Of a DNA stretch of 64,000 bases, positions 42,621-54,746 are shown in pieces. The notes beneath the pieces were generated by a model that searched no databases, was not told the origin of the DNA, and saw nothing but the letters and a program-made list of their open reading frames with translations. Origin of the DNA: a virus (Duplodnaviria; Caudoviricetes); the IMG/VR virus record IMGVR_UViG_3300031867_000001, positions 186,504 through 250,503 of that record. The stretch is one strand, 5' to 3'. Both the position numbers and the translations under genes were made by a program. Position 1 is the stretch's first letter. The number at the start of each line of letters is the position of its first letter.

Positions 42621-43145
42621 TCAGTCGATATTAGTGTGTTCAAGCTGTAACCAACACATCATATTCCATATGGAAGAGATCCAGTGTGGTTCATCCGTTT
42701 CATCATTCAAGTACTGACACAGATGGCGGAAACCAGAATCTTCGAATGACCACTGAGGGATTCCATTCTTCCAGTTATTCTCCCCATACTTCTCAGCACC
42801 TTTCTGGAAGTGAATCGCCAAGTCCTTCAGCATCACAACAACTGCATTCCATACTTCGTTGTCACCGATCTTGTCACTGTCAATGCAGTATTTACGAAGT
42901 GTGATTCCGAGAATGGCTTTCTTGAAATCTCTGTTTGTATAATTGATCAACAGATCACATGTGTCACGCAGTCTATTGATGTGTGGGTTTGTATTAAGTT
43001 CGTTGTCCACGAAGTTGAAGAAGTCGACTAATGCGTCAGCCGGTAACAGATCGAAACGACCTTTGCCGTCCTTTGTGTAACGAATTCCGCCACCTTCAAA
43101 CTGGTGGAACTCTCCATCTACTTTGATCTCATACTTATCACTCAT
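42621..43145 (-). CDS. dATP/dGTP diphosphohydrolase-domain protein (DUF5664-like)
   Basis: GKGRFDLLP...KGAEKYGENNWKNGIP...DSGFRHL...DEPH...WN. Confidence 0.78.
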   Translation of the reverse strand: MSDKYEIKVDGEFHQFEGGGIRYTKDGKGRFDLLPADALVDFFNFVDNELNTNPHINRLRDTCDLLINYTNRDFKKAILGITLRKYCIDSDKIGDNEVWNAVVVMLKDLAIHFQKGAEKYGENNWKNGIPQWSFEDSGFRHLCQYLNDETDEPHWISSIWNMMCWLQLEHTNID

Positions 43146-44211
43146 TGTAATCGTCCTCCTTTACTAATTCTGCATCTGCTACATCATCCGCTTTGTCGAC
43201 AGTGACTGTACCATTATCTGCCTCTTCTTCTTCCAATGATTCGATGTATTCTCTATCCAGATCATCAACCGAATCAGAGTCAAAATCAATCATCTTCTCA
43301 ATATATGTCAAGAAGTGACCCATCGCCCAAGCGGGTTCATCTGTGAATGCAATATACATCAACGTCATAGGATTAATGATGTCAGGCTCGTCCTTGTCGA
43401 TACAATCGATCATACCTTCATACAGTCTGTGCGGAATGTTCCATACGAACTGTTTGAACTGATCGGACGAGAACGGAATATCTTCGAAATATGTATCACG
43501 CAAATTGATGATATAATCCATAATCTCAGATGCTTCATCTTCTGTCAACAGAGTCTTTGCTTCTGATGTAGAAGTGGCAAGTTCTTTACGGATGTCCTGC
43601 AACATAGAATACAGTACACTGTTCTGAACTTCATCCGTATCATTCTCAATATGCTCTTTCAAAGATTCCAGCTGACGATTGAGTTCATTGATCTCAAATG
43701 TCTTTGCACCAAGATCATTGTTCAAACCATCACACTGTTCCTTGTAACGTTCCAACTCGGACTGGAGCTGTTCGTTCTGAACATTTGCTTGATTCAGACT
43801 CTTTTCCAGTTCAGCGATCTGTTTCGACTGATTCTCTACCTTGTCCTTATAGTAGTTTACATCACTCTGACGAACTGCTTCTTTCAAATGTTCGATCTGC
43901 TTCTTCAGTTCTTCAACTTCTGTGTTGTCATTTGCTTGTGCGATTGACTGTTTGATCTGTTCTGGAGTGGGTTGTTCCTCACTGGGATATGTGATCAAGT
44001 CATTGATATTATCTGCGACATTCTGCAGTCTCTTTGTACCATCACTCAGTCTCCAATCATAGCTGGTATATACTGTATTGGATTCTTTCTTGGGTTCTTC
44101 TTCTTTCGGCTCAGACTCTTCCGGACGCTCAACGGATGTCAATTCATCATTGACATCCTCAAGCTCATCATGTACAAGACCAAACGCTTTCAGGTAATTG
44201 CTAATATTCAT
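43138..44211 (-). CDS. Acidic coiled-coil protein
   Basis: 357 aa with a heptad-rich central ~120 aa and E/D-rich ends. Confidence 0.75.
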   Translation of the reverse strand: MNISNYLKAFGLVHDELEDVNDELTSVERPEESEPKEEEPKKESNTVYTSYDWRLSDGTKRLQNVADNINDLITYPSEEQPTPEQIKQSIAQANDNTEVEELKKQIEHLKEAVRQSDVNYYKDKVENQSKQIAELEKSLNQANVQNEQLQSELERYKEQCDGLNNDLGAKTFEINELNRQLESLKEHIENDTDEVQNSVLYSMLQDIRKELATSTSEAKTLLTEDEASEIMDYIINLRDTYFEDIPFSSDQFKQFVWNIPHRLYEGMIDCIDKDEPDIINPMTLMYIAFTDEPAWAMGHFLTYIEKMIDFDSDSVDDLDREYIESLEEEEADNGTVTVDKADDVADAELVKEDDYNE

Positions 44212-44214
44212 AAC

Positions 44215-45069
44215 TTATACTCCTCTCCACATTGAATCATTTTTAATTTTATGATCCAATTCATATTGGGCGACTACGGAAGATGCCAACCAAGCGTCTG
44301 GCATATCCGGATTCTTCATAGACATTTCTTCTTCATCAACTTCAATCTCAACACTCTTTGTCGGTTCAGTCATTCTAACACCTTCAATAGATTCGAACAA
44401 CCGAAGTCTTTCATCTTGAGTGATTGTAGATCTTAACGATGCATCGCTATACTTTCTTGGGCATTCAGGACAACGATACTCTGAGAAGGAAGAATCCATT
44501 GTCAATGTCTTACAACCACACAGACACTGAAATAGATTCATACTAACTGGGAAGATGTATGCATAATCAATACATACGGGTTTACCTGCGGAATTGATCC
44601 CCCAATTCGCATAATTCTTATCAACAATTCCGACATCACCAATCAAGAACTGTTTGCACCATTTCGACAGAATGGATACGATTGTATCTCGGCGTAACAT
44701 CATTTCTGAATAAGAACTGAAAGCGGGTGCATATTCAGCAACGAGTAAATGTCCACCACTTGATATTTCCAAAGCTTCTGCAACATTTGGAGCCAACTGA
44801 TCAGACATGACCCATTCCTGTTTATTATCCGCAATCCCTTCTTTATCAAGTGCGATCTTGATAACAAATCCATCATATTTGATAATATGACGATTTGTTC
44901 CAGTACCAATCGATTTAAAATCAATTCCATATTCAGTGAATAATTCATTGATCTTATCTCTTCTTGATGTTGGAAGCATACCTTTTTGAAGTGATACTTC
45001 ACCGAGTTTATCTCTCAATTCTTGTGGCAATGTCAACAATCTCGATCTATACGTTACTGTCTCTTTCAC
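44215..45069 (-). CDS. Protein kinase-like protein with C-terminal Zn ribbon
   Basis: Gly loop IGTGTNR, VIKIA Lys, alphaC Glu (DNKQEW), catalytic GD...NWG, IDYAY, then CLCG...CPEC. GTG start after GGAGG. Confidence 0.78.
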   Translation of the reverse strand: MKETVTYRSRLLTLPQELRDKLGEVSLQKGMLPTSRRDKINELFTEYGIDFKSIGTGTNRHIIKYDGFVIKIALDKEGIADNKQEWVMSDQLAPNVAEALEISSGGHLLVAEYAPAFSSYSEMMLRRDTIVSILSKWCKQFLIGDVGIVDKNYANWGINSAGKPVCIDYAYIFPVSMNLFQCLCGCKTLTMDSSFSEYRCPECPRKYSDASLRSTITQDERLRLFESIEGVRMTEPTKSVEIEVDEEEMSMKNPDMPDAWLASSVVAQYELDHKIKNDSMWRGV

Positions 45070-45100
45070 TGAGATTACCTCCAATCAAAACGTGGGTATG

Positions 45101-45129
45101 ATATGTGGGGCTTTGATAGCCCCACATAT
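45101..45129 (-). terminator. Terminator-like hairpin
   Basis: ATATGTGGGGCT/AGCCCCACATAT. Confidence 0.55.
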
Positions 45130-45142
45130 ACATTCCATTGAT

Positions 45143-45817
45143 TTAACCCCAGTTCTGTTTAGCAATATTCAGTAAGGACTGAGACTGCTGAGCAATATCC
45201 GCAGGTACTGGAATTGACGGATATGTCGGTGCTGTATTCTGCTGACAATTGTTGGGAATATACTGCTGCCAATTAGCAGTCGGCATCTGTGGCTTAATCG
45301 GCACATTACTCATCTCCCACTGCTGAGTCTTCTTCGTCGTAGGAGCTGCATTGTACTGATTATACATTGCCGCATTATATGCCGGATCAAACGGGTTCTG
45401 CTGACACGGAGCCCACGGATTCTGTGTCTGCTGCATCTGCGGAATAGTCGGAACGGGATTCTGATACGGCATCTGCATACCACCGTAATTCGTCTGATAC
45501 GGATTATACTGCGGCTGCTGATAACCACACTGCTCCATTGTCGGCTGGCTGAACTGTGTACCGTTGTACGGCGGTACATTGTTGAACTGGTTGAACATCG
45601 GGTTTGCCTGAGGAACCTGCTGTCCCATCGACATTGCGTTGAACTCTTCCAGTGTCGGCGGAACCGGACGAGCAGAAGCGTCTGCGAATCCACCATTCAT
45701 CATGGACGGATTTACACCAGGATAGTAGTACCCGTTGTTCATGTTGAACTGGGGCTGATTCTGGTATGTGTGTTCCATGAAGTTTCCTGTTTCGATTGGG
45801 TAATCTGGATTAATCAT
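45143..45817 (-). CDS. Prion-like low-complexity protein (Q/N/P/Y/M-rich)
   Basis: 224 aa, AAGGAGG SD, few charged residues, motif PPTLEEFNAMSMGQ. Confidence 0.8.
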   Translation of the reverse strand: MINPDYPIETGNFMEHTYQNQPQFNMNNGYYYPGVNPSMMNGGFADASARPVPPTLEEFNAMSMGQQVPQANPMFNQFNNVPPYNGTQFSQPTMEQCGYQQPQYNPYQTNYGGMQMPYQNPVPTIPQMQQTQNPWAPCQQNPFDPAYNAAMYNQYNAAPTTKKTQQWEMSNVPIKPQMPTANWQQYIPNNCQQNTAPTYPSIPVPADIAQQSQSLLNIAKQNWG

Positions 45818-45844
45818 AGTTAATTCCTCCTTTTTGATTATAAA

Positions 45845-46480
45845 TCAACCACGATAGATCGTTGAGATCAGCTGACTCAAAATGATCATATCGTTTTCGA
45901 TTTCGTTAAGATTTTTGGCATCGAAATACCATCTTGATCGATGACAAATAAATTCGTCATTGATTCTTGTGATCATACCACAAACATACGGAGAGTTACT
46001 CTGAACAATCGCATGTCTGCGATAATTCTCAGGGATTCTGAGACTTCCAATCACATCATCTGTCTCAGTCGGCAGACAATGACCCGATACTGCGATCTCA
46101 CAAATTCCCGTCTGGAAGACTCCATATCTCGACAAGAATCTGATGATTCTCAACATGGATTTCATCTGCGTTCCAATCTGAGATCTCGGAACAGGTGCGG
46201 TTACTACCCAGAAGCATACATTACCCTGAGTTTCAATCGGATCTGCTTCTCTGATGATACAGCCAGAACCAGGAAGAACAAACGGAAGCAAACTTTCGAT
46301 CGCTTTCAGTCTTTCTCCATACTGGAACTTTCTTCCATACTGGTCGAACATCAGCATCTTGTATCCAACGAACGGTTCACTTCTGACCGCATACATCGGA
46401 TATGCTTCCATGACCATAGCCGAATAATCGACAATATGATCCATGGGAACGATTCGGGACTGATAAACTTCAATACCCAT
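45845..46480 (-). CDS. Hypothetical protein
   Basis: 211 aa, AGGAGG SD. Confidence 0.75.
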   Translation of the reverse strand: MGIEVYQSRIVPMDHIVDYSAMVMEAYPMYAVRSEPFVGYKMLMFDQYGRKFQYGERLKAIESLLPFVLPGSGCIIREADPIETQGNVCFWVVTAPVPRSQIGTQMKSMLRIIRFLSRYGVFQTGICEIAVSGHCLPTETDDVIGSLRIPENYRRHAIVQSNSPYVCGMITRINDEFICHRSRWYFDAKNLNEIENDMIILSQLISTIYRG

Positions 46481-46562
46481 AATTCATACCTCCTAAATGA
46501 AATATTGGAGACAGTATACCATTGTGTCACTATCTCGGACAAATTATATACATTTTGATTAT

Positions 46563-48059
46563 TTAAATATTAGCCACAAAGTTTTGTAGTTGTTTACCAA
46601 AGAAGATTGGTTGTGACAATGTGGTTGTCTCCATAATGTCGGGTTGTAATGCAAACGAATCTGTTGAATAGAAAGGATGTCTGATTGCATTAATATCAGC
46701 ACCTTCTGCATTAGAATCGAGATCTCTACGTTTTGCTGCTTTAATCATCAATTCTTTTCTATCACCATTATTCTCGATATTGATAATGTACAAACCATCT
46801 GCAACTTCCAATATCTCAATTGCAGATCCAATTTGAGATCGACCCAATACTTCAGCAGATTTGTTACCACCACCATGAGCAGCCGCATTGTCAACTGCTT
46901 GTGCTGCAGCACGGTTTAACTGATGTCCTGTGACGACTGGGATATTGAATTGAATCGACATGGTTTTGAATTCATTCATAATCGCATTCAATTCACCTTT
47001 CTCAGAAGCTCGTGCAACTTCATCTCTGGAAGCAGGTCTGACGCGTTTCAAATAATCAAAGAATAATGCAACAACTTCAGTTGTTTCGGTGTTAAACGAT
47101 CTGATGATATTCGCAATATCAGCAGTGGACTTTTCTCTGTATCCATAATACAATAATACAGAACGGAAACCCTTGGATGTTAATTTAGAATTAATCATCT
47201 CAACAATTTCATCAACCGTGTATGATGCCATATCCGCCATTGGATATAACAATCCCCACAAACGACGAACTGTTTGAGCCATGGAGTTCTCCATAGAAAT
47301 GTAAATCGATACAGGTTGTTTTCCGTGTGTTGTATTTTTGATATGTTCATTATACAAACACGTGTCCACATGTCCTTGTAACAAAATACCAGATTTGTAA
47401 TTTCCTGGCAATCCTGCATATACGTAGATACACCCAGACAAATATCCGGGCGATAACAGCATATTCAATCCTTTGAAGGACGTGATAATACACTTATCAG
47501 CAGATCGAGAATCTTTTGTTTCAGCAACAACTGTTCGCATTCCTTCAATATTGTCAGAATCGAATTGATGTGATACAGCGGCTATATTCGACACATTATA
47601 CGCTTCAATGATTTTTGTTGACATGGAATACATTGTGTCGACAATTTCTCGAATTGGTGTTTCTTCATCATCCAATAAATCCATCGCTTTAATGAATGAA
47701 TTCTGATGTTTCAACAGTTTTGCATATTTGACATAATCCGATAAGATTGTAGTTACTGTCGTTAATTCTGTCTGTGTATTAATTGTCGGATTATCATGAA
47801 AGAATTTCACATTCTTCACAATCTCCGAATCTTCACCCTCTTCGTCCATAGAATTCAAAATCAGTGTATACGATTTGATGTCTTTCTCAAAATAACTTAA
47901 CAAACGATGTGCCGTTTGATAATATATGGACTTAGATGGATATTCGGATAATACTCGAGAAAATAATACGAAATTCTGAGATGTTTTATATTCGTCATGT
48001 TTCGATACCATAATCGATATGATATCTTTATATAATGACGAACGTAATTGCTTTGCCAT
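46563..48059 (-). CDS. dnaB: DnaB-family replicative helicase
   Basis: AGLPGNYKS, YISMEN, FFDYL, VTGHQLNR, EVAD. Start moved to ATG 48059. Confidence 0.87.
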   Translation of the reverse strand: MAKQLRSSLYKDIISIMVSKHDEYKTSQNFVLFSRVLSEYPSKSIYYQTAHRLLSYFEKDIKSYTLILNSMDEEGEDSEIVKNVKFFHDNPTINTQTELTTVTTILSDYVKYAKLLKHQNSFIKAMDLLDDEETPIREIVDTMYSMSTKIIEAYNVSNIAAVSHQFDSDNIEGMRTVVAETKDSRSADKCIITSFKGLNMLLSPGYLSGCIYVYAGLPGNYKSGILLQGHVDTCLYNEHIKNTTHGKQPVSIYISMENSMAQTVRRLWGLLYPMADMASYTVDEIVEMINSKLTSKGFRSVLLYYGYREKSTADIANIIRSFNTETTEVVALFFDYLKRVRPASRDEVARASEKGELNAIMNEFKTMSIQFNIPVVTGHQLNRAAAQAVDNAAAHGGGNKSAEVLGRSQIGSAIEILEVADGLYIINIENNGDRKELMIKAAKRRDLDSNAEGADINAIRHPFYSTDSFALQPDIMETTTLSQPIFFGKQLQNFVANI

Positions 48060-48124
48060 TAAAAATCTCCCCCAGTTTGAAAAATGAAATCGTATCATTT
48101 CGTTGTGAATTTGCCAGAATAAAA

Positions 48125-48144
48125 GTGGGGGAATTAACCCCCAC
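48125..48144 (-). terminator. Terminator-like hairpin
   Basis: GTGGGGG/CCCCCAC followed by TTTT on the minus strand. Confidence 0.65.
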
Positions 48145-48156
48145 AATATATTCCAT

Positions 48157-49929
48157 TTAATTCATATCATCGAGAATGAAACGTCCCTGGTCTCCCTGGA
48201 GTTGAAGCAAGTTGGAATCAAATATCAATGCACGTGATGTCAGCAGATATTTCACGATAGACAAAGTCGCAACCAACACTTCCAAATCATATTGAGAAGA
48301 AGTTGGAAGATTCTTCATATCTACAAGACTATCCGTAATGATATCGAATGATTTCTCAGGCTTGTTATTGTCATAGAACTCCTTACACAGTTCCTGGAAA
48401 GTTTCCACACCATTGTCAGAATGCTTGGACTTCCAAATATCATAACAGAGTTCCCGAATAGAATGTTCAATTGCCGTGCATACGTGAGAAGTCAGATCCG
48501 TCAGTTCTGTCTTGGGTTTCTGCATTGTATCATAATTGTATCTCGAGATTCTGTCATAACCATACCAAATCATGTTTGGTACAATACCAAATTCCAATGC
48601 AGATTTTACGATAGACACACAGTCATCGATCTTGTCCGTAATCATCTTGAGTTCCAACTGTGTTCCTGCTTTTGCACGAATCAGCGTCTCTTTCTGCTTC
48701 AATGACAGATCACGAATTCGATCATTGATCAATGTTTTGCGAACATATGACTTTTCAGTATCACGTTCAATCTTCAAGTCACGAATGTACTCCGTTGGAA
48801 CTTCTGCATTCATGATACACAGGCAGTTGTAATTATGAACTTTGACAACATATTGTGGGATCTCATCACAATCAACAACGATATGATGTACATCACGAAG
48901 TGTTGTATTCAATACCGCAGCCAAATCATGTAACGTATCTTGAATATGTTCGCCCTTAACTTCTGCAAGGAAAATGGTTGCATCACGCTTTGTCAAAGAC
49001 ATATTGACCAAATACCGTTTGTATTCCGTATCCATAAAGTCTGCACGTACACTTCGACACAGAATCAATACCGTCTCTTCTTTCGCTTTGTCATAATGAT
49101 CATAGAAGTTCTTCCATTCTGCATTACCAAATGCATGATCATATAACAGAATCCGAACAGAGGTATCGTGATCCAGTGCCAAAGCATATTCAGGATTCAG
49201 GAACCGAACACGAACACGGTAATCTCCAGGTAAATGATCCACTTCATAATTTGCATTACTGGTGGATTCAAATGAAGATTCTGAATCAACGATAATGTTG
49301 TTTGTGGAAACAACAACACCATTCTCATCGTATTCGGGCATTAAAGCGTCCATCAACATATCAACGAGTTTGTCATCATAGTTTGATGCAACACGAATGA
49401 TGTTCGCCAATGATTCTTTTGTCATTGGCAGGATTGTACCATCTTCCATATCACGCTTAATTGCCAATGAAGATTGAAGTTCCAGCTCGATATTATCAAG
49501 CACTTCTTTCAAGTGACGTTTGTCTTCGGTATTTGTCATCAGAGGTCTAAGTTGGTTGAACACTTTCTCTGCCAATAGAATACAAGACGTTGTACCATCA
49601 CCAACGGTGCGATTTACACGTTCAATGATGTCTTTGATGGTGATATATACCATCTTCTTGTATTGGTGATTGAAACCAATTGCAGAGAAGATGTTATATC
49701 CGTCCTTTGTACTTGTCATTTGATTTTGAGCAGAGATCAAGATTGTAGAACCATATGGACCATAAGTGTTCCGAAGATTATCCGCAATCACTTTAAATGC
49801 ATCATGAACGAGCTTCTGAAATGCACTTTCTGGAATGATGTTCACATGATTATCATGAGCATACTGTGTGTAATCATATTTGATTCGGTAGTTCTCCGGA
49901 ACTGCTTCATTTTCCAACTGTAACGACAT
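48157..49929 (-). CDS. groEL: Phage GroEL-like chaperonin
   Basis: TYGPYG, TKDGY, GDGTTS, IDDC...A...GIVP; 590 aa. Confidence 0.87.
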   Translation of the reverse strand: MSLQLENEAVPENYRIKYDYTQYAHDNHVNIIPESAFQKLVHDAFKVIADNLRNTYGPYGSTILISAQNQMTSTKDGYNIFSAIGFNHQYKKMVYITIKDIIERVNRTVGDGTTSCILLAEKVFNQLRPLMTNTEDKRHLKEVLDNIELELQSSLAIKRDMEDGTILPMTKESLANIIRVASNYDDKLVDMLMDALMPEYDENGVVVSTNNIIVDSESSFESTSNANYEVDHLPGDYRVRVRFLNPEYALALDHDTSVRILLYDHAFGNAEWKNFYDHYDKAKEETVLILCRSVRADFMDTEYKRYLVNMSLTKRDATIFLAEVKGEHIQDTLHDLAAVLNTTLRDVHHIVVDCDEIPQYVVKVHNYNCLCIMNAEVPTEYIRDLKIERDTEKSYVRKTLINDRIRDLSLKQKETLIRAKAGTQLELKMITDKIDDCVSIVKSALEFGIVPNMIWYGYDRISRYNYDTMQKPKTELTDLTSHVCTAIEHSIRELCYDIWKSKHSDNGVETFQELCKEFYDNNKPEKSFDIITDSLVDMKNLPTSSQYDLEVLVATLSIVKYLLTSRALIFDSNLLQLQGDQGRFILDDMN

Positions 49930-49950
49930 ATTTTGATCACCTTCTTCGTT

Positions 49951-50571
49951 TTATCTCTCATGCATCATTTTGAATTCATAAACTGCTTTACCACGTGGAA
50001 ACATCTTCTTCAGGTCATTACAAGATCTAATGATATCCACTCCGCTTGTGATGCGGAAGATATCATATTGAACAATGGACAATGCTTTTATCAATGCTTC
50101 AATGAGTCGAGCTTGTTTACGCTCGAGACTTAATTGCAGATTATGCATTGCCATGTTGATCTTTTCGCTTTCCCATTCCATATCATCACCATCAGAAGAT
50201 TCAAGGTATTCTTGTCGACGAATAATCATTACATCTCGAACCTTCTCTTGAAGTGTAGAATATTGCATCAACATGTGACGGAATGTTGATGCTTCTTTGG
50301 ATATGGTATTTTGCAGATTGACCAACCGAACTGCATCAAATGGCTTTGCAAATTTATTCTCTTCATACAACAGCATGAGAGTTGTAATAACTTGTACTTG
50401 CTGAAGAAGTATTGTTATTTTTTGATTGTAATTATCGGAATTGATACTTTCTGCACATTCAATTGTATCTGATATGACATCTGATAATGCAATCACAACC
50501 TTCTTCAATACAGTAACTTGTTCGATATCTCGTTTCTTAACACGAATGATATCAAATCCAAATAGTCTCAT
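49951..50571 (-). CDS. Hypothetical helical protein
   Basis: 206 aa, AAGGTG SD. Confidence 0.7.
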   Translation of the reverse strand: MRLFGFDIIRVKKRDIEQVTVLKKVVIALSDVISDTIECAESINSDNYNQKITILLQQVQVITTLMLLYEENKFAKPFDAVRLVNLQNTISKEASTFRHMLMQYSTLQEKVRDVMIIRRQEYLESSDGDDMEWESEKINMAMHNLQLSLERKQARLIEALIKALSIVQYDIFRITSGVDIIRSCNDLKKMFPRGKAVYEFKMMHER

Positions 50572-50577
50572 ATATGA

Positions 50578-51726
50578 TCACACCTTTATTTTGCAAACAG
50601 TTAATGTGATGGAATTCTTCATGAGTGCATACATTTTTCTGCGGGTTAATGTGGAATCGTCTGTGTCGATGTAAATCAATGAACCAAACCGATGTAATGC
50701 CATTGTTTTAGTATCAATGATATTCCCAGGAACGACTTTCGTCTTGTGGAAATCAGGCAGACCACATACAAAATCATGATTCAGATTTTTGTCCGAATCA
50801 TCTTCACGAACATTCATCCAGATCCATTTTGATGATTTGAAGATGCGGAATGGTTGACGTGCATTATGCGCATTCTGTGTTCCAGCAACAATCAAATCAC
50901 CTTTGCTCAAGTGATGTGTGAATTTATCTGAATCTTGATACATCATGATTCGAGAATCCGTAATCAACCAGCGTTGATCCTTGTGGATATTATACACTGA
51001 TTGCTTCTTCCGAGCTTGTTTGATTACTTCTTCATTATCACACACATACATGTATTTGGTATTACTGCCAATGGAGTTACGACGAATCTTTCCATAGTAT
51101 ACTCCACCTTTAGCCGCTTTATTGATCATATCCGTTTCAATGTCCCATACTTCACGTGCCATTCCGATAATATTTGGAACTTTCCGGAATGAACGTGTGA
51201 TGGTTGGTACATTAATCCATGTTTCACCAAACATATCAAATGGATCCACACAAAAGATTACTTTACCGCGGAAATAATCAACGAATGCATCCAGATATAT
51301 TTTGTCAATCAAATGTGCATTGTTGATGATTAACAAATCATATTTGTCAATGAATTTGCCATTCATATACATAAGATAGTCTTCCGTCTTTGGTCTTCTC
51401 TTCAGACAGTATGGATCGTATGGAAATACTTCATCACCTGCAATTGGTTTGTAAGTGAATAAGTTCTTGTAGTAGATATGATTGGCAACATTTTGTTCAG
51501 CCTTCTTCATATAGATGATATCAGGACAACCATCAACGATCAGGATATTTTCAAATCCACAATATACGGTTGATGTATCCAGTACGGTTCTTAACAATGG
51601 AGAACCACAAATACCACCAACCTCAATCACTTTAACATCAACACTGTGGAAAAAATCCACGAGCATATCCATAATCACATCGGGCTCATAGATATTTGTC
51701 GGTCTGAAGCATGTTTCAATACTCAT
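50578..51726 (-). CDS. Dda/RecD2-like SF1B helicase homolog, apparently inactive
   Basis: Motif order kept but degenerate (VGGICGS, LLIINNAH, IFCVDP, ITRSFR, KMYA). ATG 51726 after AAGGAGG. Confidence 0.5.
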   Translation of the reverse strand: MSIETCFRPTNIYEPDVIMDMLVDFFHSVDVKVIEVGGICGSPLLRTVLDTSTVYCGFENILIVDGCPDIIYMKKAEQNVANHIYYKNLFTYKPIAGDEVFPYDPYCLKRRPKTEDYLMYMNGKFIDKYDLLIINNAHLIDKIYLDAFVDYFRGKVIFCVDPFDMFGETWINVPTITRSFRKVPNIIGMAREVWDIETDMINKAAKGGVYYGKIRRNSIGSNTKYMYVCDNEEVIKQARKKQSVYNIHKDQRWLITDSRIMMYQDSDKFTHHLSKGDLIVAGTQNAHNARQPFRIFKSSKWIWMNVREDDSDKNLNHDFVCGLPDFHKTKVVPGNIIDTKTMALHRFGSLIYIDTDDSTLTRRKMYALMKNSITLTVCKIKV

Positions 51727-51766
51727 ATGAACAACCTCCTTGTTCAAAAAATATAATCATGCATTG

Positions 51767-51789
51767 TGTGGCGGGGTGTCCCCGCCACA
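51767..51789 (-). terminator. Terminator-like hairpin
   Basis: TGTGGCGGGG/CCCCGCCACA. Confidence 0.55.
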
Positions 51790-51804
51790 ACTGCACGTTT
51801 GTTC

Positions 51805-52461
51805 TCATCTCTTCAAAGCGAACAGCTTGTCCATGGAGAGATCAATGCCGAACTCGTTATTAGCTCTCAGGTTGTTAGTTACAAACCAAATGAGATCTGT
51901 GTTGGGTTCCTGACCGATCTTTGCTACATAGCGGATCTGATAATGACCCTCGAGCTTATTCGTCTTTACATCTCTCAGCATGTCGAAGATGATGCGCTCC
52001 GGACGCAGATATACGATGAAGTACTGATTACCAGACTTCGGATCACCAACCAGTGTGAGCTTGGAGTACTTAATCAGCTCCTCAAGTCTCTCACCACTTA
52101 CGCCCAGAAGATTCAGATGCGTAAGCGATTCAGAAGTGATCTGATCATATGTGAAATCCTTAGGATACATAAAGGGTTCCAGTGAAGCGAGCGAACCCTT
52201 ATCAAGCGAGTAACCCTTCTTATTTTCCATAAGGAATCTGGTTGCGTAATCAACAGACGCATCGTTGCGATCTACAATCAGATCCTTTGCCTGGATTACA
52301 ACTCTCATACGTACATACGAATTGCCGTTGTATCCATCCCATCTCATGAAGTCCGGCTTGATTCTGAAGCCCAGTACTTCGTTCTCGAGATAATGTACGA
52401 TATCACCTGTCGAGAAATCGTATGTCTCACCAGAGGGTTTAACGTTTCCTTTGTTAGCCAT
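51805..52461 (-). CDS. Hypothetical protein
   Basis: 218 aa, GAGGAGG SD, strongly biased codons. Confidence 0.78.
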   Translation of the reverse strand: MANKGNVKPSGETYDFSTGDIVHYLENEVLGFRIKPDFMRWDGYNGNSYVRMRVVIQAKDLIVDRNDASVDYATRFLMENKKGYSLDKGSLASLEPFMYPKDFTYDQITSESLTHLNLLGVSGERLEELIKYSKLTLVGDPKSGNQYFIVYLRPERIIFDMLRDVKTNKLEGHYQIRYVAKIGQEPNTDLIWFVTNNLRANNEFGIDLSMDKLFALKR

Positions 52462-52474
52462 TTGAATGACCTCC

Positions 52475-52849
52475 TCATATAAATTTTTGTACCTGGATGT
52501 ATACTGCCAATACTTTAATTATTGACTGCTCATCTGCTTCCAGGTCATTGAAAGACTTATCATACAAATATCGACTCAAAGCATATGAAACTCCATCGTC
52601 AATATTCATATCATAATGCTCTTTCAGTATCTGATTGACGCTATTAAGGTCATCAAATACGTGTTCAACGAATCCGATGTGTACACGATCGAGACGATTC
52701 ATTTTCGGCTTGATCATATCCACCAATGCTGTGATATCGGATTCCAGATCGAATGGTATTTCAACAACATTCGGATCTTCGGGTTCTTTTATTGTGATCT
52801 TATCGGCAGTAGCCAATCGATCACATACGGCTTTAAATCCTCCATCCAT
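52475..52849 (-). CDS. Hypothetical protein
   Basis: 124 aa, GGAGG SD inside the upstream gene. Confidence 0.7.
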   Translation of the reverse strand: MDGGFKAVCDRLATADKITIKEPEDPNVVEIPFDLESDITALVDMIKPKMNRLDRVHIGFVEHVFDDLNSVNQILKEHYDMNIDDGVSYALSRYLYDKSFNDLEADEQSIIKVLAVYIQVQKFI

Positions 52850-53306
52850 AGTTTACCGGACCTCCTCCGTTCATATAATCAACCTTACCGTACTGGGGGT
52901 TCTTAATCCCATCATACTCGGTATTTGCCATCGGTCCTTCATAATTACCGAACGGACTTTTGTTGCCGTATCCATAACCATATCTCACAGGCTGGGGATT
53001 GTTATAACCACCATTCTGCATATTGAACGCTCCACTGGACATACGGTTGAACATCTCTGGTGTGGGCGGAATTCCAGGATTTACATTCTCTCTGGAAGCA
53101 TACCCATATCCATAAGATACGGGCTGGGAATTTCCACCAGCATATCCCCAATTGTTGCTCGAGGGTCTGCCGACATTATCAATCGCATTCGAAATACGAT
53201 TAACGCATTCAGATCCCTTCTCGAATGTTCCAGCCATTCCATTGAACAGCTGATCCAGATATGCGGTATTCATACCATCTGGGAAGTTGTTATTGTTATT
53301 CTCCAT
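52833..53306 (-). CDS. Prion-like low-complexity protein (N/G/Y-rich, YGYGY repeats)
   Basis: 157 aa; YGYGY x2, motif PPTPEMFNRMSSG. Confidence 0.72.
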   Translation of the reverse strand: MENNNNNFPDGMNTAYLDQLFNGMAGTFEKGSECVNRISNAIDNVGRPSSNNWGYAGGNSQPVSYGYGYASRENVNPGIPPTPEMFNRMSSGAFNMQNGGYNNPQPVRYGYGYGNKSPFGNYEGPMANTEYDGIKNPQYGKVDYMNGGGPVNYGWRI

Positions 53307-53405
53307 AACAATATGACATTTTGATTCTTATCCAAGATTGTTGACCTTCAATCAGATACAATAAGCTCCATCCGAGATGTCACCTCGGTAGTCTTTGGGC
53401 GGATG

Positions 53406-53441
53406 AATGGTGCGTGTAAATAAATGTTCACACGCACCATT
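53406..53441 (-). terminator. Hairpin after the 53446 gene
   Basis: AATGGTGCGTGT/ACACGCACCATT. Confidence 0.5.
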
Positions 53442-53445
53442 GTGA

Positions 53446-54462
53446 TTAATACACATTACCGTATGTTTCGACACGCGGCTCACGACCACGGTGAACACGA
53501 TTCATCAGCTCGTTAAACTGATTCATCTGGTCCTGTGTAAATGTCGTCTGGCTCTGCTCCAGCATCTGCGGCTGTTCAAACTGCATCTGCGGCTGGAATA
53601 CGGTCTGGTTGTTATAACCATAACCATACGGCTGCTGCATCTGTGGCTGCTGCTGATTATACTGCTGATACGGATACTGACCCATAGACATCATATTGAA
53701 TTCTTCCAGTGTCGGAGCTCTGCCAATAGTGCCATAATTCTGGAAGTTCTGGTCAAAGTCATGACCATTGTTATAGCCATAACCATAACCATACGGCATC
53801 TGCGGAGCATTGAACATAGCCTGTTCTCTCTGCTTACGAGCTTCTTCCTCAAGACCCATTGCATGGTATCTTCTCTGGAATTCCTCAGTAAACGGATTCT
53901 CCCACTGCGGCTCAGAAGAGCTTCTATAATCAGTAAACATGTTCTGATTCATGTTGGGAACCTGATTCATGTTCATCTGCTGCTGCATAACATTCAGCTG
54001 CTGCTGCATTGCATTCATCTGCTGACGCTGGAATGCTTCCTGCTGTCTACGTGCCTGGGCATAACGATATCTTTCGTCATGAGACATGCTCTGGACATCC
54101 GGTGCGTACGGAATGACCTGAGGAGTGACGAAAGAACACGGTACGTTGCCCCATGTATAAGCACTCTGCTGGTACATATTCTGGTACTGCGGCTGGAAGT
54201 TATAATACTGCGGCTGATTGTGCATAGGAAGTGCGTTCACCTGCGGTGCGGGTGCAGACTGAACGGGCATCGGTGCAGGACCCATCGGTACGGGACCCAT
54301 CGGAGCACCACCCATCGGCATACCACCATACGGAAGCATACCACTACGCTCTGCCTCTTCCTGACGCTTCATCTTTCTGACATTTGCGATAATGCCAACA
54401 ACAACACCTGCGATTGCTGCAAGACCCATCACAGCGTAAGAAATCAGTGTCAATACGCTCAT
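53446..54462 (-). CDS. Membrane-anchored prion-like protein (N-terminal TM, Q/M/P/Y/N-rich tail)
   Basis: Start MSVLTL at 54462; TM helix then RKMKR; YGYGY x2; motif APTLEEFNMMSMGQ. Confidence 0.8.
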   Translation of the reverse strand: MSVLTLISYAVMGLAAIAGVVVGIIANVRKMKRQEEAERSGMLPYGGMPMGGAPMGPVPMGPAPMPVQSAPAPQVNALPMHNQPQYYNFQPQYQNMYQQSAYTWGNVPCSFVTPQVIPYAPDVQSMSHDERYRYAQARRQQEAFQRQQMNAMQQQLNVMQQQMNMNQVPNMNQNMFTDYRSSSEPQWENPFTEEFQRRYHAMGLEEEARKQREQAMFNAPQMPYGYGYGYNNGHDFDQNFQNYGTIGRAPTLEEFNMMSMGQYPYQQYNQQQPQMQQPYGYGYNNQTVFQPQMQFEQPQMLEQSQTTFTQDQMNQFNELMNRVHRGREPRVETYGNVY

Positions 54463-54746
54463 TATTATCACCACTCTTTCTACGGGGATTCGAATATTCA
54501 TAATGAATAGACAATATATGTCAACAAAATGTCCAAGATGTGGATTGTGATGCATCATACAATCACACATTTGTTCAGATTGTTAATATTCACTACCAGC
54601 AGATATATGGATTTCTTATTCGTCCTGAACCACTACCGATACGACTACACTTCGGAATTACATTCGAATTACTCGGAATTACATGGATTTTGAAACATTA
54701 TTCATTTGGATTCGCGCGTATATCCAAACGCATATATCTGCTATGG

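Follow-up and report, generated by a model that had tools for sequence, protein, structure and literature searches.

Three low-complexity genes in a conserved block

The window (the whole stretch of 64,000 nucleotides analysed) is part of the complete 250,503-bp (250.5 kb) genome of an uncultivated jumbo phage, whose species is detected in bovine-gut metagenomes. A block of minus-strand genes (Table 1) includes three ORFs, found exactly where the sequence-only reading had placed them, that encode low-complexity (LC) proteins of 224, 157 and 338 residues, hereafter LC224, LC157 and LC338. Their summed fraction of Q, N, Y, G, P and M (0.61, 0.58 and 0.55, respectively, versus a genome median of 0.26) bears out the claimed residue bias: LC224 and LC338 head the automatic gene ranking by this content, and the score of LC157, replaced in that gene set by its antisense ORF, falls between. 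YGYGY repeats occur in two of the three, LC157 and LC338, as described; the aromatic fraction of the trio is 0.12-0.14 and aliphatic residues are few. The description of the trio as charge-poor applies strongly only to LC224 (15 charged residues of 224), whereas LC338 has 47 of 338, clustered in its Q-rich helical middle part.

Table 1. Genes and sequence elements of the block, in window coordinates
Feature	Position	Strand	Description
Acidic coiled-coil protein, 357 aa	43138..44211	-	part of conserved block
p289	44215..45084	-	probable protein-kinase-like protein with a CxC...CxxC zinc ribbon at its C-terminus; next gene downstream of LC224
LC224	45143..45817	-	predicted disordered, Q/P/N-rich; ORF with syntenic orthologues
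Motif copy 1	45620..45658	-	PTLEEFNAMSMGQ; LC224 residues 54-66
LC224 first RR box, decayed	45665..45682	-	DASARP; [DE]SRRN in aligned orthologues
p211	45845..46480	-	folded, unknown family, directly upstream of LC224; conserved synteny
Divergent DnaB-like helicase	46563..48146	-	PF20307, 1.6e-30; phrog_3213
GroEL-like chaperonin	48157..49929	-	PF00118, 65 bits; phrog_5725, 6.5e-48
Four conserved genes (206, 389, 218, 124 aa)	49951..52849	-	between chaperonin and LC157; synteny
LC157	52833..53306	-	N/G/Y-rich, short conserved N-terminal part, two YGYGY runs
LC157 34-residue insertion	52998..53099	-	only in the window's species; carries motif copy 3
Motif copy 3	53031-53066	-	PTPEMFNRMSSG; in LC157 insertion
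LC157 RR box, decayed	53151..53171	-	GRPSSNN; SRRN in orthologues
LC338	53446..54462	-	membrane-anchored low-complexity protein; N-terminal TM helix kept in orthologues
Motif copy 2	53677..53715	-	PTLEEFNMMSMGQ; LC338 residues 250-262
Weaker motif-core copy	53797..53820	-	AMFNAPQM; LC338, just before YGYGYGY; alignment judged by eye
LC338 basic stretch	54346-54378	-	RKMKRQEEAER, directly after TM helix
LC338 TM helix	54379-54447	-	N-terminal

All three LC proteins are predicted to be intrinsically disordered. For LC224, founder of a family with 97 clusters at 50% identity, AF2 (72 rows) models only two short terminal helices (pLDDT 54.6, pTM 0.19), the ESM Atlas model (ESMFold) has a pLDDT of 0.46, and comparison with Pfam and PHROGs gave no family match. 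LC338 runs from its TM helix and basic stretch through PMG repeats, the Q-rich charged helical part, YGYGYGY and the motif described below to a C-terminal box, the last ~35 residues being conserved with its nearest relative. Its start at 54462 is preceded by AGAGTGGTGA and agrees with the starts of the orthologues; a longer start at 54570 lacks a ribosome-binding site and was rejected. One of the three proteins is thus membrane-tethered, and the basic stretch after the LC338 helix predicts a cytoplasmic low-complexity part: LC338 is best explained as held at the inner membrane face by its N-terminal helix, with LC157 and LC224 predicted to be soluble.

The gene order is kept across a clade of uncultivated phages: membrane protein (LC338 and its orthologues, TM-LC), LC157, p124, p218, p389, p206, GroEL-like chaperonin, DnaB, p211, LC224, p289 and coiled coil. 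In 14 related loci found by scanning with the DnaB-like helicase as anchor (L003, L005-L017), this order is unchanged as far as each contig reaches, and exact-protein look-ups added two more full-length blocks, L033 and L038. No homologues of the trio were found in cultured phages and it has no homology to any characterised protein; judged by sequence comparison, the trio is specific to this clade of uncultivated jumbo phages.

Among the neighbours, the DnaB and GroEL-like assignments hold and the acidic coiled-coil protein is plausible, whereas the supposed degenerate helicase (389 aa) gained no support from Pfam, PHROGs or profile comparison with the PDB; like it, the 206-, 218- and 124-aa proteins have no family match. 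The proposed 289-aa kinase, p289, lacks a Pfam match but has invariant kinase-type residues (IGTGTNR, K76, E90, D150, N160 and D173) and a weak fold match, with protein kinases as 50 of its 50 best Foldseek matches at E-values of just 2e-3 to 9e-3 (AF2 pLDDT 61). It is probably a kinase-like enzyme, and it always adjoins LC224.

A short motif shared by the three proteins

As the sequence-only reading had stated, the three proteins share the motif PT[LP]E[EM]FNxMS[MS]G, exactly at the positions it gave, and scanning all six frames of the complete 250,503-bp sequence found three copies only, all in the trio. The best common 13-mer of LC224 and LC338 matches at 12 of 13 positions, against a maximum of 10, reached once, in 2000 composition-preserving shuffles, while that of LC224 and LC157 matches at 9 of 13 against a shuffle maximum of 8. 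A chance origin of the sharing is excluded. A weaker copy of the motif core, AMFNAPQM, is present in LC338; where LC338 has it, the L003 orthologue reads AMFTTPVM (alignment judged by eye).

The exact motif is restricted to the window's species, a single species-level lineage. The LC157 copy sits in an insertion that is missing in 8 of 8 aligned orthologues and in 15 further clusters, and the LC224 copy occupies the place of a related box, P.M.AF[QN]ALY, which follows the first RR box (see below) in the nearest subclade. The exact motif is absent from orthologues, which the sequence-only reading had named as counting against its proposal, yet the recent duplication that it had in mind is not the cause, and the orthologues carry another shared motif. 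Nucleotide likeness between copies 1 and 2 is confined to the 39 nt of the motif, with 7 mismatches, 4 of them synonymous; because the codons differ synonymously and the edges are sharp, the copies are not a fresh DNA copy.

Within the lineage the motif is near-invariant. Compared with the close relative L033, its 38 codons show no non-synonymous and about 7 synonymous changes, against 46 non-synonymous changes over the full length of the three LC genes; with ~2.6 expected in the motif and none seen, the excess conservation over the flanks is not significant alone. Four further TM-LC clusters, of 87-89% identity, retain the exact motif while their adjacent YGY runs vary, the LC157 copy is unchanged in 15 near-identical variants, and the LC224 copy shows a single L-to-P change in one variant; across variants of 87-100% identity the flanks vary and the motif, apart from this change, does not. 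These comparisons support the view of a linear motif under selection that the three proteins share and a common partner reads. Alternatively, it could be a functionless by-product of recombination or gene conversion among three repetitive, compositionally similar genes: low-complexity genes are prone to recombination, the exact motif is confined to one lineage and one copy lies in a lineage-specific insertion. However, the synonymous divergence, the sharp edges and the near absence of amino-acid change next to varying flanks speak against this, as do the parallel loss and clade-wide equivalent described next, and we consider it very improbable.

The RR box and its in-step variation

In relatives, the same three families have in common a short motif, [DE]-S-R-R-[NFY] (RR box), counted 37 times in 6,700 low-complexity residues versus 4 times in 58,669 other residues. 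In most of the clade LC224 has two copies, LC157 has one and the membrane protein has from none to two (the TM-LC proteins of L003, L008, L012 and L017 are without one); one or two boxes are kept in LC224 of 86 of the 96 family representatives, and one SRR[ND] box in LC157 of 14 of 15 further clusters. The box is just 4-5 residues long. Outside the trio it is at chance level in the relative G001 and is therefore no site of general maturation.

The box varies in step. The window lineage has lost it from all three proteins, with the first LC224 box and the LC157 box decayed and the second LC224 box deleted, and has the new motif instead. In the L038 lineage the form is [AP]RR throughout the trio (ARRM/ARRA in LC224, PRRN in LC157, PRRM in TM-LC), and P0093 has GLRNQ in both boxes. 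An acidic residue at RR+2 is present in both LC224 boxes in 11 cases, in neither in 52 and discordantly in 10 (Fisher p = 5e-7, uncorrected for phylogeny). Because the motif varies in step in all three proteins, one shared candidate binding partner suggests itself; the in-step variation comes from few independent lineages, so gene conversion between boxes could be part of the cause instead of co-evolution with a reader. The proposed docking on a common hub gains from this variation and from the selected behaviour of the motif, but the hub itself is a candidate only. The conserved synteny of the trio in an uncultivated clade, the RR box common to three families and their in-step variation are new compared with the sequence-only reading.

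A recognition site for an enzyme, either dibasic cleavage by a phage or host protease or modification of Arg, Ser or Thr, with the window motif as replacement site, would account for two invariant arginines within almost charge-free chains, for a box as short as enzyme sites are, for the enzyme of kinase-like fold encoded adjacent and for the invariant Thr and Ser of the window motif. Yet a window motif of 12-13 residues with L..F..M spacing resembles a binding helix more than a cleavage site, and no protease was found in the block; we regard this reading as unlikely. Ser phosphorylation of the family-wide box is not essential, because Ser gives way to Ala or Pro in whole lineages.

A candidate reader and a possible membrane assembly

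We favour, at about even chances, the view that the three disordered proteins are tied by a short linear motif to one common folded reader and likely form a multivalent membrane assembly. The motif would link the proteins functionally and be read by a common folded partner or enzyme. Across most of the clade this motif would be the RR box; the window's species, in which the RR boxes have decayed, would instead use the 12-13-residue box, which may have arisen from a pre-existing LC224 box and then been inserted into LC157 and LC338. The aromatic, Q/N/G-rich disordered chains could, together with the reader, assemble at the membrane, and multivalency is likely because motif copies are spread over one membrane-anchored and two soluble proteins.

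p211 is a weak candidate for the reader. It shows a relative-rate excess of +0.084 in the window lineage, compared with -0.026 to +0.033 for the twelve other proteins compared (ten neighbours, LC224 and LC157), making it the only neighbour with accelerated change there, and at 7 of 22 near-invariant columns the window's p211 alone departs from the rest. Complex prediction for p211 and LC224, fed with purpose-built alignments, returned 'weak support': its score of 0.52 (runs 0.52, 0.55 and 0.20; best of three controls 0.00) passes a mark that 58 of 80 solved complexes also reach, as do 2 of 110 mismatched pairs, though at scores of 0.60 or less only 7 of the 80 solved complexes and both passing mismatched pairs do so. 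The runs had at least 11% contact agreement and a partner pLDDT of at least 37, and this single prediction yields no interface. The analysis shows the genes, their predicted disorder and conservation, the motif statistics and the in-step variation; a docking role for the motif, p211 as its reader and the formation of any assembly are what we infer.

Charge-poor spacers and spaced aromatics typify the FUS/Sup35-type prion-like domains and the cohesive FG/GLFG nucleoporin domains. The trio likewise has Q/N/G/P spacers and regular aromatics (YG, FG, NPF, NPW), but its proteins are from a bacterial virus, measure 157-338 residues and hold several conserved islands, and the likeness is compositional only. 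The sequence-only reading had proposed a liquid-like condensate tethered to the membrane, acting as viral factory or selective barrier, driven by Tyr stickers and Q/N/G spacers, tuned by the kinase, positioned by the tubulin and replacing a chimallin shell. The sticker-spacer composition with its YGYGY runs, the predicted disorder, the LC338 anchor, the constant neighbour p289, a tubulin-like gene (phrog_4733, 4.5e-6) and a complete genome in which one single-sequence search with phiKZ chimallin gave no match suit this proposal. Against it, the RR-box serine is replaced in whole lineages, p289 has no lineage-specific change to match that of the motif, the tubulin gene lies ~10 kb away in a separate gene cluster, and the absence of chimallin is that of one single-sequence search only. 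Precedents exist among phages in the condensate drivers SPO1 Gp27 (PMC13401047) and the phage-nucleus RNA-binding protein ChmC (PMC11077065), likewise phage-encoded and partly disordered, which organise an infection-specific assembly, as the trio may do. Unlike the trio, to which they bear no sequence relation, they have folded domains and bind transcription machinery or RNA, whereas the trio is almost wholly disordered, has one membrane-anchored member and is joined by a common linear motif. Phage proteomes have been surveyed for predicted prion-like domains (Tetz & Tetz 2017, PMC5694896), which are similarly Q/N-rich low-complexity segments and which the survey's abstract places mostly in attachment, penetration and release proteins; the trio, by contrast, has no folded domain that can be recognised, sits within a block of replication type and has a motif that changes in step. 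The full condensate proposal appears improbable to us.

Packaging of the trio into the virion for ejection, with the motif as capsid-targeting or cargo-loading peptide and the TM helix inserting into the membrane on entry, is distinctly less probable. The membrane-protein gene is transcribed divergently from a virion structural protein gene (phrog_20401, 8.6e-20), but the setting of the trio is one of replication-type genes (DnaB, chaperonin, dNTP diphosphohydrolase domain). Internal proteins of T4 bear a capsid-targeting sequence, and encapsulin and procapsid loading likewise use one short peptide, common to otherwise unalignable disordered cargo, that directs it to one receptor (PMC11659603, encapsulins); the motifs of the trio, in contrast, are internal, at times duplicated and not terminal, and the trio is known without shell or capsid receptor.

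Returning to the preferred membrane assembly, the part order of LC338 and its conserved C-terminus recall another kind of anchor. ZipA-type tethers have an N-terminal TM helix, a charged stretch, a P/Q-rich linker and a C-terminal binding box; LC338 follows this order, with no homology to ZipA and no folded C-terminal domain evident, and any connection with the phage tubulin would be purely conjectural. Finally, contigs of bovine-gut metatranscriptome libraries contain pieces of all three LC genes, which does not prove their transcription but is compatible with it.

Three low-complexity genes in a block of conserved order

The complete virus record (250,503 bp with direct terminal repeats, the window being bases 186,504-250,503) carries three minus-strand ORFs of low complexity, LC224, LC157 and the membrane member LC338, which we found as the sequence-only reading had described them. 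Their prion-like composition of the FUS or Sup35 type (Q/N/G/S/Y-rich and charge-poor with aromatic stickers) was likewise confirmed, with a Q+N+Y+G+P+M fraction of 0.55-0.61 across the trio (0.61 for LC224, 0.58 for LC157 and ~0.53-0.55 for LC338; genome median 0.26) and an F+Y+W fraction of 0.12-0.14. LC224 and LC338 lead the ranking of ~220 genes by Q+N+Y+G+P+M, the LC157 value lying between the two. AlphaFold2 modelling of LC224 from a 72-row alignment gave a mean pLDDT of 54.6 and a pTM of 0.19 with two short, terminal helices, and the ESM Atlas model has a pLDDT of 0.46; from this low confidence the proteins are predicted to be disordered. The ESM Atlas neighbours of LC224 are eukaryotic disordered proteins with non-significant scores (best 0.75). 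For LC338 the likeliest translation start is 54462 (338 aa): this ATG is preceded by AGAGTGGTGA, the alternative start at 54570 lacks a ribosome-binding site, and orthologues in the membrane-protein family (TM-LC) start just ahead of the TM helix. Two plus-strand ORFs over LC157 and LC338 were rejected as artefacts of composition, low-complexity DNA being poor in stop codons; the minus strand is favoured over these antisense ORFs by conservation, by ribosome-binding sites and by the pattern of synonymous and non-synonymous changes. One of them (229 aa) takes the place of LC157 in the automatic longest-ORF gene set.

Coordinates of the features (window positions unless another source is named)
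Feature	Position	Strand	Remark
LC224	45143-45817	minus	low-complexity trio
LC157	52833-53306	minus	low-complexity trio
LC338	53446-54462	minus	low-complexity trio, membrane member
Motif copy in LC224	45620-45658
Motif copy in LC157	53031-53066
Motif copy in LC338	53677-53715
p211	45845-46480		adjoins LC224
p289	44215-45084		kinase candidate
Antisense ORF over LC157	52635-53324	plus	229 aa, rejected
Antisense ORF over LC338	53491-54510	plus	339 aa, rejected
GTAATTC, three copies	54650-54690	minus	leader of LC338, 10-12-nt spacing
174-aa protein	42621-43145		PF18909, 2.3e-14
198-aa protein	genome 81177-81773		outside the window
Split DnaB, locus L012	9998-12045
Split DnaB, locus L013	10013-12475
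Split DnaB, locus L014	10004-12440
Region related to the DnaB split, locus L039	1106-1678

The sequencing runs holding this stretch come from 14 studies and mostly bear the label bovine gut metagenome. Nucleotide comparison of the block with 50,697 GenBank phages gave no match, nor did protein searches of cultured phages with p289 and p211, so the block has no known counterpart in cultured phages. GroEL-like matches in Staphylococcus, Bacillus, Listeria and other jumbo phages share 19-28% identity, and the gene order near the BpSp match revealed nothing similar to the block. A word-based homologue search with LC224 returned its own cluster only. After a peptide-word search of IMG/VR for LC224 and LC338 relatives came up empty, we collected relatives through DnaB as anchor, obtaining one from IMG/VR (L003, DnaB 83% identical) and 13 metagenomic loci (DnaB identity 53-85%); exact-protein look-ups added two more full-length blocks, L033 and L038. 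As far as the contigs extend, the genes follow the order TM-LC, LC157, p124, p218, p389, p206, GroEL-like, DnaB, p211, LC224, and then p289, a coiled-coil protein, a dNTP-diphosphohydrolase-domain protein, p304 and p985, indicating that the low-complexity genes are real and positionally conserved. They evolve fast (35-48% identity to L003 vs 83-84% for DnaB), and Pfam and PHROGs hold no family for LC224, LC157, LC338 or most neighbours. The trio family is well populated and readily found, with fixed synteny and a 4-5-residue hallmark: searching 1.84 billion representatives with a profile of LC224 orthologues gave 97 clusters (50% identity level), almost all of 200-265 aa. In the full genome of one relative (G001), the counterparts of the trio are the only strongly low-complexity proteins. 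Next in low complexity after the trio in the window's own genome is a 198-aa protein with an N-terminal N/G/Q-rich tract (Q+N+Y+G+P+M 0.39), which has neither of the two motifs described below.

Pieces of LC224, LC157 and LC338 occur at 99-100% identity in contigs of four bovine-gut metatranscriptome libraries, which is compatible with transcription, DNA carry-over being possible. These contigs are uninformative on timing, strand and transcript ends, and they leave parts of the block uncovered (e.g. much of DnaB and the coiled-coil gene), from which neither absence nor level can be read. A scan for sigma-70-type promoters gave 44 sites vs 43.8 in shuffles, hence no excess.

A shared motif in the window lineage and the RR box of its relatives

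The motif PT[LP]E[EM]FNxMS[MS]G, which the sequence-only reading had reported as common to the trio, was recovered at exactly the positions claimed for its three copies, and scanning the entire genome in six frames yielded no fourth. The best shared 13-mer scores 12 between LC224 and LC338 and 9 between LC224 and LC157, while 2000 composition-preserving shuffles reached 10 (once) and at most 8, respectively. The motif has the length of a short linear motif (SLiM; 3-15 residues) and lies in a predicted-disordered region, the AlphaFold2 pLDDT across its area in LC224 being 58 (residues 51-60) and 47 (residues 61-70). It is also conserved above its flanks and recurrent in unalignable proteins, as is the RR box of the relatives ([DE]-S-R-R-[NFY]).

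Absence of the motif from orthologues, as a product of recent duplication only, had been named as grounds for dismissing it. The first part of this holds: when L003-L004 and the 13 metagenomic loci were scanned with up to 4 substitutions allowed, no copy turned up. At the motif site of LC224, the nearest subclade (L003, P0062, P0076-78, P0084) has P.M.AF[QN]ALY, so the LC224 copy is a diverged orthologous box; it comes after a decayed first RR box. The LC157 copy sits within a 34-residue insertion found in none of the orthologues, and the LC338 copy in a part that L003 does not have. The second part is contradicted, since synonymous divergence, sharp nucleotide edges and invariance of the motif beside variable flanks argue for selection on the peptide rather than fresh duplication. 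Specifically, the LC224 and LC338 copies resemble each other at the nucleotide level only over the 39 nt of the motif (7 mismatches, of which 4 are synonymous), with flanks at random level. Compared with L033, whose DnaB is 99% identical, the 38 motif codons show ~7 synonymous and 0 amino-acid changes vs 46 non-synonymous changes over the three genes together, and the non-synonymous share of these genes is far above that of DnaB, p211 and the chaperonin. Across 40 near-identical variants and four clusters of 87-89% identity, a single motif change was seen (L to P in LC224, which is the LC157 form), and YGY runs and spacers beside the motif differ among variants that keep it. Placement of one copy in a lineage-specific insertion is what neutral recombination might leave behind, yet a by-product of this kind is the least likely explanation given the signs of selection: the feature is real and selected.

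In the relatives, the RR box is common to all three protein families, with 37 occurrences among 6,700 residues of their low-complexity orthologues vs 4 among 58,669 residues of other ORFs from the same loci. LC224 representatives (n=96) carry two boxes in 68 cases, one in 18 and none in 10, and a single box is present in 14 of 15 further LC157 clusters. The window's proteins are exceptional, the first box of LC224 reading DASARP, the second being deleted, and that of LC157 reading GRPSSNN. Variation runs in step elsewhere too: in the L038 lineage every member of the trio has Ala or Pro ahead of RR (LC224 ARRM and ARRA, LC157 PRRN, the membrane protein PRRM), and P0093 has GLRNQ in both LC224 boxes. 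The contigs of P0091, P0093 and P0105, three other variant lineages, do not extend to the LC157 and TM-LC genes. Among 73 LC224 homologues the two boxes agree far beyond expectation in having or lacking an acidic residue at RR+2, which is present in both boxes in 11, in neither in 52 and discordant in 10 (Fisher p = 5e-7, without phylogenetic correction). Together with parallel loss and replacement in the window lineage, such in-step variants are the pattern expected if one reader, a postulated common motif-binding partner, serves all copies. A sub-branch of the membrane protein (L012/L017-type loci and P0155-P0161) is short (150-177 aa) and free of RR boxes, and its C-terminal part is well conserved (TTNPWGTMAY... 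and GVGNDIRPSPTGAPPGW...), so the membrane member may work differently there.

A rival explanation makes the motif a site that an enzyme recognises or cleaves. Serine is dispensable, judging from the Ala, Pro and GLRNQ variants, and these [AP]RR and GLRNQ lineages weaken the view that the RR box serves essentially for Ser phosphorylation; a general maturation-protease site was rejected because the box stands at chance level in the G001 proteome outside the trio counterparts. We also rejected the reading of SRRxF as a Tat signal peptide (S/T-R-R-x-F-L-K), as the position is wrong, with boxes found between residues 40 and 160 and frequently two to a protein, and as the sequence after them is polar and uncharged with no hydrophobic h-region.

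A candidate reader and what the trio may build

In a relative-rate comparison of the window with L003, for which both were set against as many as nine outgroups, p211, encoded directly upstream of LC224, was the sole neighbour accelerated in the window lineage (+0.084 vs -0.026 to +0.033 for all others), and it deviates alone at 7 of 22 near-invariant columns. Changes specific to the window lineage at near-invariant sites include A49G, P54Y, D62E and G89C. One complex prediction with LC224, run on our own alignments, gave weak support at a score of 0.52 (runs 0.52, 0.55 and 0.20; best of three controls 0.00) with no interface reported, contact agreement between runs of at least 11% and partner pLDDT of at least 37; of the reference pairs, 58 of 80 solved complexes attained the mark, as did 2 of 110 mismatched ones, and at scores of 0.60 or below stand only 7 of the 80 solved complexes plus both mismatched pairs that passed. 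Searches of Pfam, PHROGs and PDB profiles placed p211 in no recognisable family, and ESM Atlas has no model of it. As motif reader, p211 is thus a candidate, a lead and not a finding.

The best-supported reading is that the trio consists of conserved disordered proteins which a co-evolving linear motif addresses to a common reader. One member would be anchored at the inner face of the membrane, the clade-wide RR box would have been exchanged for the longer motif in the window's species, and a multivalent membrane-proximal assembly, which might take the form of a liquid condensate, a barrier or a factory, would be a natural consequence of shared motif and membrane anchor. The sequence-only reading had proposed a membrane-tethered, phosphorylation-tuned condensate with the motif docking on a hub protein; this mechanism is plausible, with support limited to composition and topology, and we regard a condensate as a special case of the shared-reader reading that probably does not apply. 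The broader proposal, that in a jumbo phage lacking a chimallin shell trio and reader form a new phage-built, membrane-anchored assembly of disordered proteins (for example a condensate or gel) with a role in organising replication or shielding the genome, its addressing motif co-evolving with the reader and swapped wholesale in one lineage, strikes us as rather unlikely. A single-sequence search of the complete genome with phiKZ gp54 gave no chimallin match at E <= 1, a search uninformative for very distant homologues, and a tubulin-like gene lies ~10 kb away. A further rival takes the motif as a capsid-targeting peptide on packaged proteins: the gene divergent from the membrane-protein gene encodes a virion structural protein (phrog_20401), and the trio resembles cargo-loading peptides by analogy of architecture or composition, with no homology. 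The same holds for SPO1 Gp27 (PMC13401047), ChmC (PMC11077065), FUS/Sup35 and FG-nucleoporin domains and ZipA-type tethers.

Disordered motif-bearing scaffold proteins are central in the cell biology of eukaryotes and eukaryotic viruses and, to our knowledge, barely charted in phages. The literature searched holds no description of the trio family, the RR box or the motif swap, and trio and motif thus appear undescribed there. Predicted prion-like segments catalogued in phages are reported to belong mostly to attachment, penetration and release proteins (PMC5694896). An addressing motif of three disordered proteins that varies in step by lineage offers a natural experiment in motif-receptor co-evolution. 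A membrane assembly, if true, would show by what means infection is organised in a large phage that has no recognisable nuclear shell; if there is none, the RR box and its replacement still represent a linear motif new to phages, with a reader that is open to direct search.

Other genes of the block

Two neighbours were upheld as named: the DnaB-like helicase (527 aa) matches PF20307 (106 bits, 1.6e-30) and PF03796 (33 bits) above the Pfam gathering score, and the GroEL-like chaperonin (590 aa) matches PF00118 over residues 48-206 only (65.1 bits, cutoff 34.3) and phrog_5725 over residues 31-574 (6.5e-48). The label "degenerate helicase" for p389 found no support, as neither the protein nor nine orthologues match Pfam or PHROGs, a PDB profile search gave no match, and GxxxxGK[ST] is missing. 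For p289, called a protein kinase, conserved residues speak for the name, the fold match is weak and profile matches are lacking. IGTGTNR (the Gly-rich loop), K76 (catalytic Lys), E90 (helix-C Glu), D150 and N160 (catalytic Asp and Asn) and D173 (metal-binding Asp) are invariant in nine orthologues, which also keep a CxC...CxxC ribbon, and the catalytic D-to-N spacing is 10 (usually 5). The top 50 Foldseek matches of its mediocre AlphaFold2 model (pLDDT 61) are all protein kinases (PKA, Rio2, Aurora, POMK), at weak values (E 2e-3 to 9e-3, TM 0.24-0.34). No Pfam family was found at E <= 0.01, a PDB profile search returned no kinase (nor anything meaningful for p289, p211 or p389), and the one PHROGs match, phrog_4301, is of unannotated function. 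We conclude that p289 is probably kinase-like.

The GTAATTC triple sits in the intergenic region of ~270 nt from which the membrane-protein gene and the 658-aa virion structural gene diverge, and may be a regulatory repeat. The 174-aa protein has a dATP/dGTP diphosphohydrolase N-terminal domain that in relatives is fused into longer proteins of up to 548 aa. In several relatives (L012, L013 and L014 above) DnaB is split into pieces of ~412-428 aa and 75-82 aa with a gap of 0.5-1 kb, and in L039 the position of the C-terminal piece is taken by an 81-aa ORF with an HNH/NUMOD4 endonuclease gene just upstream; the split resembles the result of a mobile intron or homing endonuclease having inserted, and the window DnaB has no such insertion.
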